Shown: positions 2,129-11,832, counted from the stretch's first letter. The stretch is DNA of 64,000 nucleotides from Thermoanaerobaculia bacterium (GCA_963666565.1 OY762911.1:2240001-2304000); one strand, 5' to 3'. Notes: generated by a model not told the origin, from the letters alone. Numbers and translations: made by a program.

Positions 2129-3997
2129 GTGTCGCCGGTGCGGATCTTCCGGGTCGTCGTGTTGGCTGTGGCGCTCCCGCCGGGCGCTGCCCTGGCGCAG
2201 AGCGGGCAGGCGGAAGTCGTTCCCGCCTTCGGGCCGGAGAACTTCGCGGTCGCGGTCGATCCGCGGGCCGACGGCTGGGACACCGAGGCGCTCAGCGAAC
2301 GGGCCGAGGCGCAACTCAAGAAGGTGGCCGGGTGGCTTGCGGAGGTCGCCGCGGGCGGGGCCGATGCCGTGCCGTCCGGCGAGGTCGCGCGGGTCGTCGA
2401 TCCGGGTTTCGAGTCGGACGGGTTCGTGCCGTCCTTGCGCTCGACGGCGAGCGCGCGGGCCGGTTCGCGCGCGGCGCGAGATGGCGCCGCGCAGGCTCCC
2501 GGCGAACTGACCGCGCGCTACCGGGGGCCGGCGTTCACCGTCGAGAGCGGGAGCGTCAGCGGCGCGGACGGGGCCTACCGAGGCGCCGAGGGGTTCCGGC
2601 GGACCCTCGGGGCGCTCGCGGAGCGGCTGGCCGGAAGCGGCCCGCCGCGGGCGGACTTCAAGCTCTACTCGATCGACGCCGGGTCGGCCGGCTTCACGAC
2701 GCTCGCGTACTTCGAGGCTTCGGTTGCCGGAGCGGGCGGCAGCCGCCAGTTGAACTCGGTCTGGTCCACGGTCTGGGGTTTGCCGGCCGACGGCGACGGC
2801 GAGCCGCTGCTGCTGCGGGTGGAGGTCGAGGGCTACGAGGAAACGGAGGCGCCCGGCGGCCCCCTCTTCGTCGACGTCACGGAATCCGCGGTCGGCCACA
2901 ACCCGAGCTACCGCGAACAGCTCCTGCAGCCGCCGGACGCCTGGCTCAACCGGATCACCAAGGCGGCCGGCTACAACAAGACCGGCTGGCAGGGGATCTC
3001 CGTCGCCGATGTGAACGGCGACGGGCTGGACGACATCTTCCTGCCCGAGCAGGGCGGCCTGCCGAACCGGCTCTACGTGCAGAATCGGAACGGCACGTTC
3101 GACGATCGCTCGGCGGAAGCGGCCGTGGACTACCTGGAGCGTGCGCTGGCCGGCCTGTTCGTCGACCTGGACAACGACGGCGACCCGGACCTGGTGCTCT
3201 CCAGCCGGCCGGCCGTACTGGTCCTGGAGAACGACGGCAGCGGCCGCTTCGCCCGGGTGCGCCACGTCGCCGGCGACATCCCCGACGGCAACTCGCTCTC
3301 GGCCGCCGACTACGACAACGACGGCGACCTCGATCTCTACGTCTGCGCCTACCGCCGCGCCTACGACGAGCGCGGCGTGGCGAGCCCGGTCCCCTACCAC
3401 GACGCGAACAACGGCGGCCGGAACGCGCTGCTCCGCAACGACGGCGGCTTCCGGTTCGTCGACGCGACGGCGGAGACCGGGCTCGACGCGAACAACCGCC
3501 GTTTCAGCCTGGCTGCCGCCTGGGAGGACGTGGACGGCGACGGCGATGCCGACCTCTACGTGGCGAACGACTACGGCCGCAACAACCTGTACCGCAACGA
3601 CGGCGGCCGCTTCGTGGACGTGGCGGGGGAGGCGGGCGTCGAGGACATCTCGTCCGGCATGTCGGTGAGCTGGGCGGACTACAACCGGGACGGCCGGATG
3701 GACCTCTACGTCGGCAACATGTTCTCGGCCGCCGGCAACCGGATCACCTACCAGCGGAAGTTCGAGCGCGACCGCCAGCGCGCCGGGCCGCTGGCCGACG
3801 TGCAACGGATGGCGCGGGGCAACTCCCTGTTCGCGGGTGCTTCGGGCGGCGGCTTCGTCGACCGCAGCGTCGAAGCGAACGTGACGATGGGCCGCTGGTC
3901 CTGGTCGTCCGTTTTCGCCGACATCGACAACGACGGCTGGGAGGATCTGGTGGTCGCCAACGGCAACCTGACCCAGACCCTCCCGGACGACCTGTGA
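2129..3997 (+). CDS. Exported FG-GAP/VCBS-repeat (CRTAC1-like) protein; probably the N-terminal part of a UGA-readthrough selenoprotein
   Basis: Signal-peptide-like N-terminus (start may be GTG 2138); repeated DxNxDGxxDL motifs; ends PDDL-TGA in frame with the next ORF. Confidence 0.9.
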   Translation: MSPVRIFRVVVLAVALPPGAALAQSGQAEVVPAFGPENFAVAVDPRADGWDTEALSERAEAQLKKVAGWLAEVAAGGADAVPSGEVARVVDPGFESDGFVPSLRSTASARAGSRAARDGAAQAPGELTARYRGPAFTVESGSVSGADGAYRGAEGFRRTLGALAERLAGSGPPRADFKLYSIDAGSAGFTTLAYFEASVAGAGGSRQLNSVWSTVWGLPADGDGEPLLLRVEVEGYEETEAPGGPLFVDVTESAVGHNPSYREQLLQPPDAWLNRITKAAGYNKTGWQGISVADVNGDGLDDIFLPEQGGLPNRLYVQNRNGTFDDRSAEAAVDYLERALAGLFVDLDNDGDPDLVLSSRPAVLVLENDGSGRFARVRHVAGDIPDGNSLSAADYDNDGDLDLYVCAYRRAYDERGVASPVPYHDANNGGRNALLRNDGGFRFVDATAETGLDANNRRFSLAAAWEDVDGDGDADLYVANDYGRNNLYRNDGGRFVDVAGEAGVEDISSGMSVSWADYNRDGRMDLYVGNMFSAAGNRITYQRKFERDRQRAGPLADVQRMARGNSLFAGASGGGFVDRSVEANVTMGRWSWSSVFADIDNDGWEDLVVANGNLTQTLPDDL

Positions 3998-4025
3998 AGC
4001 TTTTTCTGGCGGCAGGTCGTGCCGC
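3995..4025 (+). promoter_or_regulatory. In-frame UGA plus candidate bacterial SECIS hairpin
   Basis: TGA 3995-3997, 11-nt spacer AGCTTTTTCTG, then stem GCGGCA (4009-4014), loop GGTCG, stem TGCCGC (4020-4025); spacing and GCAGGUC apex resemble the E. coli fdhF SECIS. Confidence 0.7.
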
Positions 4026-6466
4026 GCGCGCCCGGGGTTCTGGATGACGGCTCGCCGGACGACCGGTCGCTGGAGCCCTATCTCGACGCGCTGCGCGCGC
4101 TCCACGAACGGCTGGACGAGGGCCTCTCCTTCAGCGGCAGCGAACGGAACTGCGTCTTCCTGAACCTGGGGAACGCCGGGCCGAACCGGGGCGGCGCTGG
4201 CAGCGCGGGCGGCGCTTTCGCCAACGCCTCGGCGGTGAGCGGCCTGGACTTCCCTGACGACGGGCGCGGCGTCGCCTTCCTCGACCTGGAGGGCGACGGC
4301 GACCTGGACGTGGCGCTCGGCAACCGGACCGCGCCCCGGCTGCGGTTGATGCGGAACGAACTGCCGGCGGGCGACCGGTTCGTGGCGCTGCGCCTGGAAG
4401 GCGACGGCGCCGGCACGAACCGGGACGCGGTGGGCGCGCGGGTGGAACTGGCGACGACGGACGGTGTCCTGCGGCGCTCGGTGCGCGCCGGCGAGGGCTT
4501 CCTCTCGCAGTCCAGCCGCTGGCTGCACTTCGGCCTGGGCGACGCGGACGTGGCGAGCGGCGTGACGGTCCACTGGCCCGGCGGCGCCGGCGAGACGTTC
4601 GCCGGCGTCGAGGCCGGCGGCCGCTACCGGATCGTCCAGGGCAGCGGCCGGGCGGAGGCGGCGCCCGCGCCGGCGCGGCGGACGCCGCTCGAGCCGCGGG
4701 ACCAGGCGCCGCCCGCGCCGAGCACGGGTTCCCGCGTCGTGCTGGCGCCGCGGCCGCCGGCGCCTTCCTTCACGCTTCGCCCCTTCGGCGCCTCGGAACC
4801 GGTCCCGGTCGAGGCGGGCCGCGGCCGGCCGGTGCTGCTCAACGTCTGGGCAAGCTGGTGCGCTCCCTGCCGGTCGGAACTGCGGGACCTGGCGACCGAG
4901 GAGGACGCGCTGCGCGCCGCGGGCCTGGAGGTCGCGGCCGTTTCGACAGACGGGATGGGCGAGGTGCCCGGCACGACGGAAGAGGCGGCGCGGAAGTTCA
5001 TGGACGAGGTCGGCTTCCCGTTCCTGAACGGAATGGCGACCGAGGAGACGCTGGACAAGGTCGAGATCGTCAAGAGGTCGCTCTTCGACCGCCGCTTCCC
5101 GCTGTCGCTGCCGTTCTCCCTGCTGATCGACGGCGAGGGCCGGGTCGCCGCGCTCTACCGGGGCGGCGTGGCCGCGGACGATCTGCTTACGGATCTCGAA
5201 CTGCTGGACGCGCCGGCTGCCGACCTGCGGACCGAGTCGGCGCCGTTCCCCGGCCGCTGGTACACCGATCCCCCGGAAGAGGTGTCGCTCGCGAGCTACG
5301 CGCGCTGGTACGAGGAGCGGTTCCCCGCCGAGTCGGTGGCCCTGCTGCGGCGCTCCGTGGAGGTCGAGCGGGCGCTCCTCGGCGCCGCCGGCGCGGCCTC
5401 GTTCGAGCGGCAGGGCGCGCGGGACCGCTTGTTCAGGTCGCTCCGGCGGCTGACCGTGCTGGAGAGCCGGGGCGGGAACGGCGAGGCCGCGGCCCGCTAC
5501 GCCCGCGCCGCCCTCGACCTGGAACCGGACGACCCGGCTGCACGGGCGGCTTACGAGAACGCCCGGGTCGACGCCGGCGACGTGGACGCCGTGCGCGCGG
5601 AAGTCGAGGCCGCGCTCGCGGCCGACCCTGGCAACGTCGCCGCCCGGGTCCGGCTGGCCGAACTGCTCGACGCCGAGGGCCGCACGGGCGAGGCGGTGCG
5701 GGAGCTCGGCCGCGCCGTCGACCGGAGCCCGCGCGACGTGGAACTGCGTTACCTCTACGGCCAGTTGCTCGGCAAGGCGGAGCGCCTGCGGGAGGCGATG
5801 GAGCAGTTCGCGGCGGTCGTCACCCTCGACCCGCGCCACGTCGAAGCGCACCGGGTCCTGGCGGAAGCCGCCGTGCGCAGCGACGAACTCGGGGCCGCCT
5901 GGGGCCACTACCGTGCGATCCTCGACGTCGAGCCGCGGGACGTGGAGGCGCTCTACGGCGCGGCCCGCATCGCCGCCGCCGCGGGCCGCCTGGACGAGGC
6001 CATCGACGGCTACCGGGCGCTTCTGGAACACGAACCCGGCCACGCGGCGGGCCGCCACGAACTCGGCCTCGCCCTGATCCGCGGCGGCCCCGCCGGCGCC
6101 GCCGAGGGCGCGGAACACCTCCGCCGCGCCTACGTGGAGGACCGGAACCTCCTGGCGCGAGGCAACGACATTGCCTGGACCCTGGCCACCCACCCGGACG
6201 CCGGCCGGCGCGACGGTCAGCTCGCCCTCCTGATCGCCCTGGAACTGAACGCCGTCGCCGGCGGCGCCGAGCCGGCCCTGCTTGAGACCCTGGCCGCCGC
6301 CCAGGCCGAGACCGGCGACTTCGAGACGGCGGCGCGGACCGTCGAGTCGGCGCTCCGGATCGTCGGCGCCGCGGAGGGCGCCTCGTCCGACCGGGAGCGG
6401 TTGATCGAGATGCTGAGGCGGAGACTCGAGCAGTACCGGCACGGGATCCCCGCGCGGGGCCGGTAG
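3998..6466 (+). CDS. ASPIC/UnbV + TlpA-like redoxin (WASWCAPC) + TPR repeats; probable C-terminal part of the 2129-6466 protein
   Basis: Same frame as 2129; reads SFFWRQVVPR right after the TGA; SFSGSERNCVFLN, GEGFLSQSSRWLHFGLG (ASPIC/UnbV), CxxC motif, TPR-like helices. ORF track start 4019 has no RBS. Confidence 0.88.
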   Translation, partial: SFFWRQVVPRAPGVLDDGSPDDRSLEPYLDALRALHERLDEGLSFSGSERNCVFLNLGNAGPNRGGAGSAGGAFANASAVSGLDFPDDGRGVAFLDLEGDGDLDVALGNRTAPRLRLMRNELPAGDRFVALRLEGDGAGTNRDAVGARVELATTDGVLRRSVRAGEGFLSQSSRWLHFGLGDADVASGVTVHWPGGAGETFAGVEAGGRYRIVQGSGRAEAAPAPARRTPLEPRDQAPPAPSTGSRVVLAPRPPAPSFTLRPFGASEPVPVEAGRGRPVLLNVWASWCAPCRSELRDLATEEDALRAAGLEVAAVSTDGMGEVPGTTEEAARKFMDEVGFPFLNGMATEETLDKVEIVKRSLFDRRFPLSLPFSLLIDGEGRVAALYRGGVAADDLLTDLELLDAPAADLRTESAPFPGRWYTDPPEEVSLASYARWYEERFPAESVALLRRSVEVERALLGAAGAASFERQGARDRLFRSLRRLTVLESRGGNGEAAARYARAALDLEPDDPAARAAYENARVDAGDVDAVRAEVEAALAADPGNVAARVRLAELLDAEGRTGEAVRELGRAVDRSPRDVELRYLYGQLLGKAERLREAMEQFAAVVTLDPRHVEAHRVLAEAAVRSDELGAAWGHYRAILDVEPRDVEALYGAARIAAAAGRLDEAIDGYRALLEHEPGHAAGRHELGLALIRGGPAGAAEGAEHLRRAYVEDRNLLARGNDIAWTLATHPDAGRRDGQLALLIALELNAVAGGAEPALLETLAAAQAETGDFETAARTVESALRIVGAAEGASSDRERLIEMLRRRLEQYRHGIPARGR

Positions 6467-7362: not shown

Positions 7363-7502
7363 CGACAAGCCGGCGGCGCGCGTGGAACGCTCCCCGGCTT
7401 GAACGTCAGCCTTTGCTGCCCGCGCTGGGCAGGAAGCCGTCGAACCCACGAGGTGGGAAAGAGAGCGGTACCGACAACCGGTTCGCCGCGCTGGAGACCG
7501 TC

Positions 7503-10265
7503 ATGAACCGAACGCCCATTCACCTGCTGACCCTGGCCGCGGTCCTGACGCTGCCGGCCACTGCTGGCGCCCAAGCGCCGGCCCTTCCGATCGACGAACT
7601 GATGGTGTCCCGGTCGTCGGTGATCGTCTTCGGCGAGATCCGGTCGGCCGGATTGACGTCGAGCGAGCACTCGTTCACGGACAGCCTTCTGGAAGTGGAA
7701 GACGTGTTGAAGGGTGGGGTCGCGGGCAGCCAGATTGTGGTGCGGCACCCCGGCGGCCCGGGCGAGGGGTACGCCGGGGAACGACCACTCCTGGCCGAGG
7801 GCAATCGAGTGCTGCTGTTCCTGGGTGACGAAGAGAGCGGCGCCTACTCGATCGTGGAGTATCCCCTCGGGATCTTCTGGGAGGCGCGCATGGGCCACCG
7901 ATCCTTGCTCCTGGGCTGGGGAGCAGCGGCGGGCCCCGGCGTTCCGGCGGCCACTGAGCCGGGTTCGTGGCAACGTCCGCGGGACGGCGCTCGCTTCCGC
8001 CAGTGGATCGCCGATCGGGTGGCCGGCGTCGAGCCGCCAGCCGCGCACTTCACGACCTCGACTTCCGGCACCGAAGCTCCGGTGGGATCCCCGGAGGCCA
8101 CCACCTCGCTTTGCACGCCGACATCCGACGCGTTCCAACTCGACGGAGGCTACCGGGTTCGGCTGTGCTACAGAACGCCGCAGAACGATGTCGGGCAGGG
8201 CCGATCCGGCATCTGGGCCTCCGGTCAGGCTGGCCTCTTCTGGTTCTTCAGCCGCGACAACCCCGAAGCCCTGATCAAGGTCGTGGACGGTTGCGCCTTC
8301 AACCAGCACCGATGGGTCTTCTTCGCTCCCGTTACCGACCTCGGTCTTCACCTGCAGGTATTGGGTCGGACCAAGACCTGGACGTACACGAACCCGGTCG
8401 GCAGAACAGCGCCGGCGGCGGCCGACACCGCGGCGTTCTTCTGTGCTCAGGAAGACGGCGGCCGTCCGCCGGACGGCGGCGATCCGCCGGACGACGGAAC
8501 CGACGACCCGAAGCCAGGCGAGACGTTCCGGGACAATCTTCGTTCGGGCGGTTCGGGGCCCGAACTGGTGGTGATTCCGGCTGGGACCTTCCAGATGGGC
8601 TGCTTTTCGGGCGTGACTTGCCACGACAACGAGAAGCCGGTGCATTCGGTGACGATTCCGAACGTGCTGGCGGTCGGCAAGTACGAGGTGACGTTCGCGG
8701 AATGGGACGCCTGCGTTGCGGCTGGCTCGTGCAACCATCGTCCTTCGGACAGATGGGGACGCGGATCGCATCCGGTGATGGGTGTCTCGTGGAACGACAC
8801 GAAGGACTACATGCGGTGGCTCTCGCAGGAAACGGGCGAGATCTACCGCCTGTTGAGCGAGTCGGAGTGGGAGTACGCGGCTCGCGCGGGTTCGAGGACC
8901 GCCTACTTCTGGGGAAACGAAATCGACCGTGGTCGCGCGAACTACGGCAGCTCGCGGACCGTTCCTGTCGGCTCGTTCGGTCCAAACGGATTCGGTTTGC
9001 ACGACATGCACGGGAACGTGTGGGAGTGGGCTGAGGACTGCTGGAACGACAGCTACAAGGGCGCGCCTTCAGACGGGAGCGCGTGGCTTTCGGCTGACGA
9101 TTGCTCCCTCCGCGTTTTCCGCGGCGGTTCCTGGGCCGACAGACCGGTGTATGTCCGCTCGGCGAAGCGCGGTTGGAGCCCCGCCGATCACCGAGACTTC
9201 AACATCGGCTTCCGCGTGGCCCGGATGTTCGCCAGAGGGAGCGGAAAGACGGGTCCGGACCTGGTCGTCGAGCCGCCATCGGTCGACAAGACCGAGGTGA
9301 GGCCGAACGAGGTGTTCACCATCAGGGTCAACGTCGTCAACCGGGGCAACGCGACTTCCGATGCCACCACGTTGCGGTACTACCAGTCAAGGGACCGCAC
9401 GATCGACCGCTCGGAGGACCTCGACGTTGGCACCGACCGTGTGGATTCGTTGGCTGCTGGCCGCGGCAGCACGGAGGGCGGTCCCTTGAGGGCGCCATCG
9501 ACTGCCGGCACCTACTACTTCGGCGCCTGCGTGGACTCGGTAGCGGGAGACTCGGACAGGAGCAACGACTGTTCCAGTGGGGTGCGAGTGACAGTGAGTA
9601 TGACCGGCGGCGATCCTGGATTCAACCTGGCGTCCGAGAACGCGTCGCCCAGAGGGATCACGTATGCCGGAGGCCGCTTCTTCGTGGTGGACTCCAGTGA
9701 CGAAGAGGTCTACGCCTATCGTTCAGACGGACGGCGCTACGCGAGCCTGGACTTCGACCTGCGTTCGGTCAACACGGACCCTCAGGGAATCGCCTACAAC
9801 CGGAGCGTCTTCTACGTGGTCGACGTTGGAGACGAGAAGGTGTACGCCTACCGCGACGGACGTCGGTACGCCGGCGGGGAGTTCGACCTGCATCCCGCCA
9901 ACGCATCCGCGTCGGGAATCGTGTGCGCGGCGGGTCGCTTCTACGTGGCGGACCTGAGCGACGGGAAGGTGTACGCCTATCGCGGTTCGGATGGGCGCCG
10001 AGAGACCGGCGCGGAGTTCAACTTGGCTGGCGCCAACGGATATCCGTCGGGAATCGCCTACTCCGGAAGCCGCTTCTACGTGGTGGACCGCGACGACGAC
10101 AAGGTGTACGCCTACCGCGCTTCGGACGGGAGGCGGGACTCTGGCGCGGAGTTCAAACTGGATGGCGCCAACGGCGACCCTGACGGAGTGGTCTACTACG
10201 ACGGCAAGCTCTTCGTCGTCGATTCCCGTGACGACAAGGTGTACGTTTACTCCTTGGGTGGCTAG
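7503..10265 (+). CDS. Secreted multidomain protein: N-terminal domain, GLFWFF..DGC domain, FGE/SUMF1 domain, CARDB-like Ig domain, beta-propeller repeats
   Basis: Signal peptide MNRTPIHLLTLAAVL; FGE motifs YEVTFAEWDAC, RLLSESEWEYAARAG, GLHDMHGNVWEW, RGGSW...GFRVAR; PDLVV...GTYYFGACVD; five repeats of GIAY..FYVVD..DKVYAY. Confidence 0.85.
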   Translation: MNRTPIHLLTLAAVLTLPATAGAQAPALPIDELMVSRSSVIVFGEIRSAGLTSSEHSFTDSLLEVEDVLKGGVAGSQIVVRHPGGPGEGYAGERPLLAEGNRVLLFLGDEESGAYSIVEYPLGIFWEARMGHRSLLLGWGAAAGPGVPAATEPGSWQRPRDGARFRQWIADRVAGVEPPAAHFTTSTSGTEAPVGSPEATTSLCTPTSDAFQLDGGYRVRLCYRTPQNDVGQGRSGIWASGQAGLFWFFSRDNPEALIKVVDGCAFNQHRWVFFAPVTDLGLHLQVLGRTKTWTYTNPVGRTAPAAADTAAFFCAQEDGGRPPDGGDPPDDGTDDPKPGETFRDNLRSGGSGPELVVIPAGTFQMGCFSGVTCHDNEKPVHSVTIPNVLAVGKYEVTFAEWDACVAAGSCNHRPSDRWGRGSHPVMGVSWNDTKDYMRWLSQETGEIYRLLSESEWEYAARAGSRTAYFWGNEIDRGRANYGSSRTVPVGSFGPNGFGLHDMHGNVWEWAEDCWNDSYKGAPSDGSAWLSADDCSLRVFRGGSWADRPVYVRSAKRGWSPADHRDFNIGFRVARMFARGSGKTGPDLVVEPPSVDKTEVRPNEVFTIRVNVVNRGNATSDATTLRYYQSRDRTIDRSEDLDVGTDRVDSLAAGRGSTEGGPLRAPSTAGTYYFGACVDSVAGDSDRSNDCSSGVRVTVSMTGGDPGFNLASENASPRGITYAGGRFFVVDSSDEEVYAYRSDGRRYASLDFDLRSVNTDPQGIAYNRSVFYVVDVGDEKVYAYRDGRRYAGGEFDLHPANASASGIVCAAGRFYVADLSDGKVYAYRGSDGRRETGAEFNLAGANGYPSGIAYSGSRFYVVDRDDDKVYAYRASDGRRDSGAEFKLDGANGDPDGVVYYDGKLFVVDSRDDKVYVYSLGG

Positions 10266-10806: not shown

Positions 10807-11832
10807 ATGTCCGAGAAACCGAAATCGCCGAGCCAGTCGAGGCGGATCGCCCAACCCCACGACGCTCTGTTCCGGCGCGTGTTCTCCGAGCCGGCGCAGG
10901 CCGCCGCCCTGTTGCGCGAGTCCCTGCCCGCGGCCGTGCGGGACCGCTTCGACTGGAACACGCTGAGGCGCCTCCCGGACACCTTCGTCGACGAACGGCT
11001 CCGGCGGACCGAATCCGATCTCCTGTTCGAGGTCGACCAGCCGGGCGGCGAACCGCCGGCGCGGCTCTACGTGCTGATCGAGCATCAGTCCTCGCCCGAC
11101 CCGTTCATGGCGCTGCGCCTGCTGCGCTACTGCACCAGCATCCTGGAGGCGGCGGTCCGCGAGGCACCGGAGCGGAAGCGCCTTCCGCCGGTTCTGCCCG
11201 TCGTGTTCCACCAGGGGCGGCGTCCCTGGCCGTATCCGGCGTCTCTCGACGGGTTGTTGGGGGAATCGGCGCGTGAACTGCCCTGGGGGCCGCGGCTCGA
11301 CTTCCTGCTGCTGGACCAGGGCGCCGGCGGGACGTCCACGGTGGTGGGCTCGCCCCTGGGCCGGCTGGCGCAGTATCTGATGCTCGCCGTCTCGGGGCCG
11401 GAGTCCGAGCGGTCGGCGGCTCTTGAGCGGGCGGTGGAGTTGATGCGAGACTTGTGGTCGGCCGAGAGGCGGTACGACCTTGAGGTGGTCTACAGCTACG
11501 TGTTCGGCGGAAAGGAGGACCCGACCGTGATGGAGACAGTCGATGCGATGCTGAAGGAGATCGAGGCGAGGAGTCCGGACAAGCCGAAGAGCTTGGCCCA
11601 GTACGTCTGGGAGAACGGGCAGAGAAGAGGCCGGGCGGAAGGCCGCTCGGAAGGCCGTGCGGAGGGGGTCCGGCTCGGCGAACGCCGCGCCACGCTTGCG
11701 ACGGTCGAGGGCTTGCTGCGGGCGGGCGTGGACTGGCCGGTGATCAAGTCGGCGACCGGCCTCGACCGGCGCGGGTTCGACGCGCTCAAGGAGAAGCTGG
11801 GTTCCGGCCGGTCCGGACCAGCGGCGAGATAG
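10807..11832 (+). CDS. Rpn-family (YhgA/RpnC-like) PD-(D/E)XK nuclease, copy 1
   Basis: PHDALFRRVFS, DTFVDERLRRTESDLLFEV, LYVLIEHQSSPDPFMALRLLRY, LPPVLPVVFHQG; C-terminal EGRxEG repeats. Confidence 0.92.
   Translation: MSEKPKSPSQSRRIAQPHDALFRRVFSEPAQAAALLRESLPAAVRDRFDWNTLRRLPDTFVDERLRRTESDLLFEVDQPGGEPPARLYVLIEHQSSPDPFMALRLLRYCTSILEAAVREAPERKRLPPVLPVVFHQGRRPWPYPASLDGLLGESARELPWGPRLDFLLLDQGAGGTSTVVGSPLGRLAQYLMLAVSGPESERSAALERAVELMRDLWSAERRYDLEVVYSYVFGGKEDPTVMETVDAMLKEIEARSPDKPKSLAQYVWENGQRRGRAEGRSEGRAEGVRLGERRATLATVEGLLRAGVDWPVIKSATGLDRRGFDALKEKLGSGRSGPAAR

Follow-up and report, generated by a model that had tools for sequence, protein, structure and literature searches.

We analysed a 64,000-nucleotide window of DNA from a Thermoanaerobaculia bacterium (GCA_963666565.1 OY762911.1:2240001-2304000) and found that positions 2129-6466 very probably constitute one gene encoding a ~155-kDa exported protein, in which UGA 3995-3997 is read as selenocysteine (Sec) and for which we propose a redox role. 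The selenocysteine reading of this codon, put forward in an original prediction made from the window alone, is strongly supported because TGA is the only stop codon at the homologous column, a hairpin downstream of it covaries and is degraded where relatives carry a sense codon, and the TGA form co-occurs with the Sec machinery. The recoding signal, the Sec machinery and the conservation of both across phyla are each recognisable by comparing sequences.

The in-frame TGA across homologous genes

The gene begins as an open reading frame (ORF) of 622 aa with a GTG start (2129-3997) and continues in the same frame as an ORF of 815 aa (4019-6466). As originally proposed, only TGA 3995-3997 stands between them, and reading through it gives the junction TLPDDL-U-SFFWRQVVPR. 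Both halves have a coding-type composition in the shared frame, with a GC content of 0.93 each at third codon positions (GC3) and of 0.50 and 0.54 at second positions (GC2), in a window of about 70-75% GC. The elements that matter here are the following.

2129..6466, + strand: read-through gene of 1,445 codons plus a TAG stop; its orthologs are frames of 1,403-1,613 aa with exactly one TGA
3995..3997, + strand: in-frame TGA, the predicted selenocysteine codon (Sec623); TGA occupies the homologous column in 55 loci
4009..4025, + strand: hairpin of the bacterial selenocysteine insertion sequence (bSECIS) type; stem 4009-4014/4020-4025, loop GGUCG at 4015-4019, 11-nt spacer at 3998-4008

Separate initiation of the downstream ORF is unlikely because the conserved peptide SFFWRQV precedes position 4019, the first possible downstream start (a GTG located 21 nt 3' of the TGA), and because a propeller blade and the ASPIC domain are encoded downstream of the TGA. 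This peptide matches unsplit homologs. Public annotation splits the gene in two: the 815-aa C-terminal half of the window genome is recorded as a separate protein, and N-terminal halves from Thermoanaerobaculia and Planctomycetota metagenome-assembled genomes (MAGs) carry the NCBI name 'VCBS repeat-containing protein'. Gene callers had been expected to cut the gene in this way, and a full HMMER scan of a protein library with query residues 250-1030 agrees. Among the best 150 cluster representatives, 26 end exactly one residue before the site (53-77% identity; truncated N-terminal halves number 31 under a laxer rule), 3 start just past it and 93 cover it unbroken.

We followed the codon through related genomes. 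A six-frame search of 40 relatives, including 24 congeners, recovered an ortholog in 24/24 congeners (86-91% identity), each with one TGA in an open frame of ~1,400-1,600 aa. At the codon level, TGA occupies the column in the window genome (G000) and 22 congeners, plus three congeners from a later sample. More distant homologs from the same order (38-64% identity) likewise contain one TGA, and the codon-level reading, which covered same-order homologs of 33-64% identity, places it at the column in G040, G033 (two genes), G039, G036 (two tandem genes), G037 and G026. The same-order genes with TGA comprise three subfamilies, whose junctions read DDL-U-SFFWRQVV, KDT-U-S[IV]FWRQV and DL-U-LP[YF]..AVAH. 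Throughout, the open frames of TGA homologs span about 800-1,600 aa with a single TGA.

The same codon was found well beyond the order. A scan of one genome per species gave at least 80 loci, in named MAGs of Verrucomicrobiota, Acidobacteriota and Planctomycetota. Among the 80 loci listed, TGA occupies the column in 8, namely in Verrucomicrobiales (L042), Akkermansiaceae (L043, L049), Planctomycetaceae (L059) and Acidobacteriota (L045, L046, L047, L053); Cys is found in L058 and Glu in L044 and L051, and the remaining 69 are distant and loosely aligned. An even draw of 301 genomes from the phylum of the window (E <= 1e-12) gave a match in 64/301 genomes, with one TGA in 60 of the 78 matches listed (including those of the unpublished genomes G217 and G116). 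For 28 of these loci, with G217 and G116 left out, the codon itself was read: TGA in 18 and a sense codon in 10. This sample adds 12 further TGA loci beyond the congeners.

Altogether, 55/55 stop-bearing loci have TGA at the site. Neither TAA nor TAG occurs there and no frame change was seen, in loci that range from 52 to 76% GC. Stop usage in the window genome is TGA 60%, TAG 37% and TAA 3%, and TGA is not reassigned in this genome. Retention of the codon in 25 congeneric species excludes the read error or private nonsense mutation named as hazards for the original prediction. When the junction region was searched against G000 by tblastn, no further copy carrying a stop at this position turned up. 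The FG-GAP/ASPIC family is greatly expanded in this genus, as the site-region query matched 49 places in G000 and 36-60 per congener; paralog matches showing one TGA without covering the site were left out of the counts.

The hairpin and the selenocysteine machinery

The hairpin consists of GCGGCA (4009-4014), GGTCG (4015-4019) and TGCCGC (4020-4025). Its coordinates bear out the prediction of a 6-bp stem closing GGTCG exactly 11 nt 3' of the TGA. The bSECIS model requires a loop of 3-9 nt, a stem of 4-16 bp, a G in the first two loop positions, a distance of 16-37 nt from UGA to loop and a minimum free energy <= -7.5 kcal/mol (PMC13188914, Fig 2). With a 5-nt loop, 6 bp, 17 nt from UGA to loop and -10.0 kcal/mol, the window hairpin conforms to the full model. 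Under a strict coding of this model, 38/50 distinct TGA contexts pass vs 3/13 sense contexts.

Conservation and covariation, which the original prediction had named as checks, both favour the hairpin. In 23 congeneric sequences its 17 nt are invariant, the third position varies in 7/10 of the codons before the TGA, and variation resumes directly 3' of the hairpin. Across 22 distinct TGA-form sequences, 93.2% of the cells are paired, and the fourth stem pair appears as CG (6), GU (5), GC (4), AU (3) and UA (3). At 0.290, the covariation score exceeds the 0.110 of shuffles and was equalled by 0/500 of them; it falls to 0.013-0.097 when the partner is shifted by 1-3 columns. Through the covarying pair, positions 4012 and 4022 of the window, the third (synonymous) position of an Arg codon is tied to the first base of a Pro/Ala/Thr/Ser codon, seven codons later. 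Moreover, among contexts that encode the same FFWRQVV peptide, a stem of at least 5 bp in fixed register is found in 19/24 distinct TGA contexts vs 1/11 sense contexts. It is by conservation and covariation, not by stability, that the hairpin stands above chance. Folding energy was rejected as evidence for the hairpin, as it does not separate the hairpin from shuffles. An Rfam search around the TGA gave no matching family and only two chance matches at E >= 5.

The likeness to E. coli fdhF named in the original prediction was confirmed. In fdhF, the TGA is followed by an 11-nt spacer and then by GGTTGCAGGTCTGCACC. The two systems have in common an in-frame UGA, a stem-loop 11 nt downstream and, at nearly equal distance from the UGA, the apex 7-mer GCAGGTC (GCAGGUC in RNA); the window loop starts with GG, 17 nt from the UGA, and SelA, SelB, SelD and tRNA-Sec are all present. 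On the other hand, the window protein is unrelated to formate dehydrogenase, most of its homologs have E/D/S/A and not Cys at the site, and the window stem is without a bulged U, which the E. coli fdhF SECIS stem carries.

The window genome encodes the complete selABCD set, the presence of which had been a concern of the original prediction: SelA (5.7e-100), the SelB wing domain (1e-17), selD (219.7 bits summed) and a tRNA-SeC with anticodon tca (ARAGORN). The SelD match, outside the window at G000:C1:4554128-4555060 (+), lies in two pieces within an 847-aa open frame, which may be a fusion protein or merely a long open frame in high-GC DNA. SelA was found in 40/40 relatives. It is full-length (E <= 1e-120) in 8/8 of the other-phylum genomes with the TGA form, whereas among 20 sense-codon genomes it is full-length in 6, present as fragments only in 2, weakly matched in 2 and not found in 10; the latter genomes are MAGs, in which a missing selA is not proof of absence. 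The genome with Glu locus L044 (G049) has selA in three pieces in different frames, and that with Cys locus L058 (G051) has only two weak SelA pieces. This state might stem from a Sec trait decaying as Sec was replaced, or from errors in the assemblies.

A composition-based scan of G000 pointed to five more in-frame TGAs outside the window (G000:C1 ~1133915 (+), 1177399 (+), 2998258 (-), 4259244 (-) and 2172334 (-)), with coding-like sequence on both sides and motifs of known families. These motifs are VW-U-PYC (Prx-like UxxC), APY-U-GC (WAxxUGC-like) and AFTAG-U-T (peroxiredoxin), and two further genes carry D-U-GSC[ST]SC of the UGSC type. The hairpin of the Prx-like UxxC gene, GCAGCU GGUCG AGCUGC, has a GGUCG loop on a 6-bp stem, as in the window. 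No Sec-type formate dehydrogenase was found in G000, where the TIGR01553 matches are without stops.

The protein and the role of residue 623

Pfam confirms the predicted domain order of FG-GAP propeller, ASPIC/UnbV, CxxC redoxin and TPR, which is set out below.

2129..2197, + strand: probable signal peptide, M/V-SPVRIFRVVVLAVALPPGAALA then QS, judged by eye from the translation
2996..4348 (approximate), + strand: FG-GAP (CRTAC1-like) beta-propeller with DxDxDG calcium-type loops and with the TGA inside it; Pfam FG-GAP_3 2.8e-39, FG-GAP 3.9e-26
4427..4627, + strand: UnbV_ASPIC domain, residues 767-833; PF07593, E 1.3e-16
4757..5167, + strand: ResA/TlpA-like thioredoxin-fold domain, residues 877-1013; AhpC-TSA 4.2e-11, Redoxin 1.6e-06
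4856-4870, + strand: WCAPC motif (Cys911, Cys914), residues 911-914, inside the thioredoxin-fold domain
5447..6136, + strand: C-terminal TPR region, residues ~1107-1336; several Pfam TPR families, TPR_19 2.3e-16

The N-termini of homologs are signal-like or lipobox-like (LQGC, AAAC, LLSC) in the translations. NCBIfam models of TPR proteins match residues 1107-1336 below their cut-offs.

We modelled residues 250-1030 (781 residues) with AlphaFold2 from an alignment of 93 unsplit homologs, obtaining a predicted local distance difference test (pLDDT) score of 93.6 and a predicted template modelling score (pTM) of 0.94. Sec623 corresponds to model residue 374, the first residue of helix 374-384 (residues 623-633), one of two helices inserted between propeller strands. 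Residue 623 is flanked by strands on either side, and it is followed by a blade that includes a DxDxDG loop and by the ASPIC domain. A product ending at the TGA would, in this model, be without part of the propeller because strands and ASPIC follow Sec623. The WCAPC motif likewise sits at the start of a helix (model helix 663-674). The best match of the model in a Foldseek search of the PDB was murine CRTAC1 (9etn_A; E 1.3e-26, template modelling score by target (TMt) 0.72, 647 columns), and the C-terminal domain matched ResA, TlpA, DsbE and StoA, with a top TMt of 0.84 (ResA 1st9_A). Sequence searches agree with these structure matches (CRTAC1 E 1.2e-17; TlpA 1jfu also matched).

The residue at the site is variable in homologs that are not split. 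In 92 unsplit representatives we counted E 33, S 18, D 16, A 13, N 5, C 3, Q 2 and one each of R, G and M. The original prediction had looked for Cys or Ser here: Ser occurs in 18/92 and Cys in 3/92 (P0005, P0019, P0028) and in locus L058, and the residues that dominate are Glu, Asp, Ser and Ala. A redoxin motif with both cysteines is found in 10/92 unsplit representatives. By contrast, [WY]CxxC is kept in every Sec form with a readable C-terminal part and a redoxin domain; these are the window, L028, L029, L043, L046, L047, L049 and L053, together with two C-terminal halves (P0003, P0137) and another 17 loci from the phylum sample. Another cysteine, Cys675 (ERNC), accompanies Sec or Cys in the subfamily of the window and not in other subfamilies.

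An unrooted FastTree of 159 N-terminal parts requires 12 changes of the Sec label, and well-supported branches make at least 8 of them unavoidable. One clade, of 50 rows, has sense forms nested within Sec forms; another, of 60 rows, contains sense forms only. Of the tree rows, 23 combine Sec with CxxC, none has Sec without CxxC, 12 are sense forms with CxxC and 90 are sense forms without it. The association of Sec with CxxC is suggestive. It had been proposed earlier that the WCAPC motif re-reduces Sec. The co-retention of both sites (23/23 vs 12/102) is suggestive of such a role; the phylogeny-aware test given below was underpowered.

Based on these observations, we propose that SelB and tRNA-Sec would decode UGA 3995-3997 under the direction of the hairpin at 4009-4025, and that the resulting protein would carry, in order, a signal peptide, an N-terminal domain, the CRTAC1-like propeller, the ASPIC domain, the ResA/TlpA-like WCAPC domain and the TPRs. 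Sec623 would act as a redox-active nucleophile that reacts with an oxidised substrate, and a selenenylsulfide formed with Cys911, in the fused CxxC domain, could serve to recycle it; this domain may in turn be re-reduced from the membrane. Such a relay would resemble peroxiredoxin-, GPx- or Msr-thioredoxin fusions. Reactive Cys and Sec residues are typically located at the N-terminus of a helix. The placement of Sec and CxxC each at a helix start, the existence of Cys forms and the retention of CxxC point to redox chemistry; for the relay as such, we put the chances at about even.

Several observations weigh against this proposal, in its recoding part or in its redox part. Under the strict bSECIS coding, 12/50 distinct TGA contexts fail and 3/13 sense contexts pass; the failing TGA contexts are mostly G-U stems just above the energy cut-off and 4-bp hairpins with a GGUC loop from the LPY..AVAH subfamily. 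The Glu form L142 still has a perfect hairpin, and the folding energy of the window hairpin is ordinary for this GC content (z = +1.39; 186/200 shuffles fold as well or better). Few sense homologs have Cys, which is unusual where Sec is catalytic, and the fold accommodates many different residues at the site. A phylogeny-aware test of the link between Sec and CxxC had 5 independent pairs, of which a mean of 1.7 were concordant and 0 opposite (p = 0.5), so that the link loses significance when phylogeny is taken into account. Sec forms of the ~820-aa LPY..AVAH subfamily and L059 are without a redoxin domain, and no conserved redox-partner gene adjoins six Sec loci. Finally, selenium incorporation is here a prediction from sequence comparison.

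Two of these points come with observations of their own. L142 (from G153) has GAG at the site and retains the hairpin GCGCCA GGUCG UGGCGC; it may have lost its Sec codon recently. In the LPY..AVAH subfamily, the hairpin has a short GYGC/GCRC stem and a GGUC loop, ~16 nt 3' of the TGA. The ~820-aa genes of this subfamily stand in tandem at L030, L031, L032 and L034 (G037, G033, G036, G026). At L032 both tandem neighbours have TGA at the site, and at L030, L031 and L034 the Sec gene is adjoined by a second ORF of ~600 aa that ends in TGA.

We weighed the selenocysteine reading and its redox role against three rival explanations. The UGA and hairpin might serve mainly as a selenium-dependent translational switch, with the identity of residue 623 mattering little: full-length protein would be made with selenium, and the ribosome would otherwise stop, leaving a truncated product or none. 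The tolerance of the site for E, D, S, A, N, Q, G and C in homologs, with no universal catalytic group, and the repeated changes between Sec and sense forms in the tree (12, at least 8 forced) are what this account would expect. However, CxxC is kept in 23/23 Sec forms and lost in 90/102 sense forms, which points to a chemical role, Sec lies at a helix N-terminus and Cys forms exist, and a truncated product without the last propeller blade would be improbable to fold. We regard the switch as improbable. Slightly less credible still is that Sec623 is a ligand for a soft metal and not a redox nucleophile, the TlpA-like domain keeping Sec reduced for metal loading. This would suit the commonest replacements (Glu, Asp, Asn and Ser are typical hard-metal ligands), the DxDxDG calcium-type loops of the propeller and the resemblance of the redoxin domain to TlpA, including the TlpA-ScoI and TlpA-CoxB mixed-disulfide complexes 4txo and 4txv. 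Yet the site can also be Ala (13) or Gly, no second conserved Cys/His partner was found near it (the ERNC Cys675 is found in some Sec forms only), and no metal-handling genes adjoin the six Sec loci.

That the TGA is an ordinary stop, separating two genes (one for the propeller, one for ASPIC, redoxin and TPR) or marking a pseudogene or sequencing error, is the least credible account and in our view extremely improbable. The treatment of the halves as separate proteins in public gene calls (the 815-aa record and the 'VCBS repeat-containing protein' entries) and the GTG 21 nt after the TGA speak for it. It is at odds with the kept frame and the TGA-only column in 55 loci across several phyla, with the conservation ahead of that GTG of SFFWRQV and its match to unsplit homologs, and with the break it would place in the middle of the propeller. 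Moreover, the hairpin covaries and decays where the codon is sense, and the TGA form co-occurs with SelA.

Evolution, neighbouring genes and relation to known families

Repeated loss of Sec looks more likely than repeated gain because gain requires the codon and the hairpin together; the unrooted tree cannot show which occurred. The phylum of the window is probably Acidobacteriota because loci labelled Acidobacteriota nest with genomes coded as the same phylum. We propose that many relatives swapped Sec for Glu, Asp, Ser or Ala and then mostly lost CxxC too. A broader and more tentative scenario, which we think possible but somewhat doubtful, is that Sec is ancestral in a large bacterial CRTAC1/ASPIC branch, in which the fused TlpA-like CxxC domain recycles Sec, the Sec forms are periplasmic selenoenzymes and the sense relatives are dead. 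If this were true, the relatives with Glu, Asp, Ser or Ala would be descendants without catalytic activity, in which the loss of Sec preceded that of CxxC. The Sec forms could then be, for example, peroxide, sulfoxide or disulfide reductases, which would be the first enzymatic activity for CRTAC1-type propellers, and in Acidobacteriota, Verrucomicrobiota and Planctomycetota few unannotated selenoprotein families would be as widespread.

Across six 20-kb Sec loci and the window, we found no common redox-partner gene; the recurring neighbours at Sec loci are FG-GAP/ASPIC paralogs and TPR proteins. In the window, a molybdopterin oxidoreductase gene (1-2319, - strand; PF00384 2.8e-30, PF01568) is transcribed away from the selenoprotein gene, and its true start is probably further inside because its longest ORF overlaps position 2129. 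On the other side lies a gene for a 950-aa protein (7413-10265, + strand) with FGE-sulfatase (4.3e-57), CARDB and beta-propeller regions, followed by a YhgA-like Transposase_31 gene (10807-11829, + strand).

Like murine CRTAC1 (PDB 9etn), the window protein has an FG-GAP propeller followed by UnbV_ASPIC, as attested by Pfam families above their cut-offs and by the fold match to 9etn_A. It differs in sequence (19% identity, a weak though significant similarity) and in having an additional N-terminal domain of ~250 aa, a thioredoxin-fold domain, TPRs and Sec in a helical insertion. The CRTAC1/ASPIC proteins include a human cartilage protein. We know of no redox chemistry for CRTAC1 and of no activity for CRTAC1/ASPIC proteins. 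With ResA, TlpA and DsbE, residues 877-1013 share the thioredoxin fold and a WCxxC at the start of helix 1, whereas the window domain is fused to a propeller and is not a free membrane-anchored protein. This part is a related domain and not a ResA/TlpA ortholog, because fold and CxxC are shared but equivalog scores fall far below the NCBIfam cut-offs (TlpA NF047696, 49.7 vs 230 bits; ResA NF002854, 37.9 vs 170 bits).

The UGC-containing TlpA and WAxxUGC (NF041054) proteins are also extracytoplasmic-type selenoproteins of the redoxin fold (PMC13188914 Table 1). In contrast, the redoxin motif of the window protein has two cysteines and its Sec lies 288 residues upstream, in another domain; the NF041054 score is 29.1 bits vs a cut-off of 300. 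A WAxxUGC-like selenoprotein seems to be encoded elsewhere in G000. Table 1 of this 2026 review covers 119 prokaryotic selenoprotein families (PMC13188914), and none of the 119 is an FG-GAP, VCBS, ASPIC or CRTAC1 entry. A scan of the whole protein with NCBIfam release 20.0 gave no selenoprotein model above its cut-off, and a full-text literature search for selenocysteine together with FG-GAP, ASPIC or VCBS returned nothing relevant. The main texts of deep-Sep, BSepDB and the 2026 review are without FG-GAP, ASPIC, UnbV, CRTAC or propeller, terms that their supplementary tables may list. Judged on catalogue tables and main texts, this is a new selenoprotein family within a known recoding mechanism, in keeping with the earlier remark that no characterised family fits.

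Gene annotation in at least three phyla would be mended if the Sec codon were recognised. The family extends the use of Sec to a large exported beta-propeller, as opposed to a small thioredoxin-fold protein, and widens the range of folds known to contain it. The replacement of Sec mostly by Glu, Asp, Ser or Ala, with CxxC decaying, makes this family a useful case for the study of selenoprotein loss. The retention of a reactive Sec together with a fused CxxC domain provides a redox hint for the uncharacterised CRTAC1/ASPIC family.

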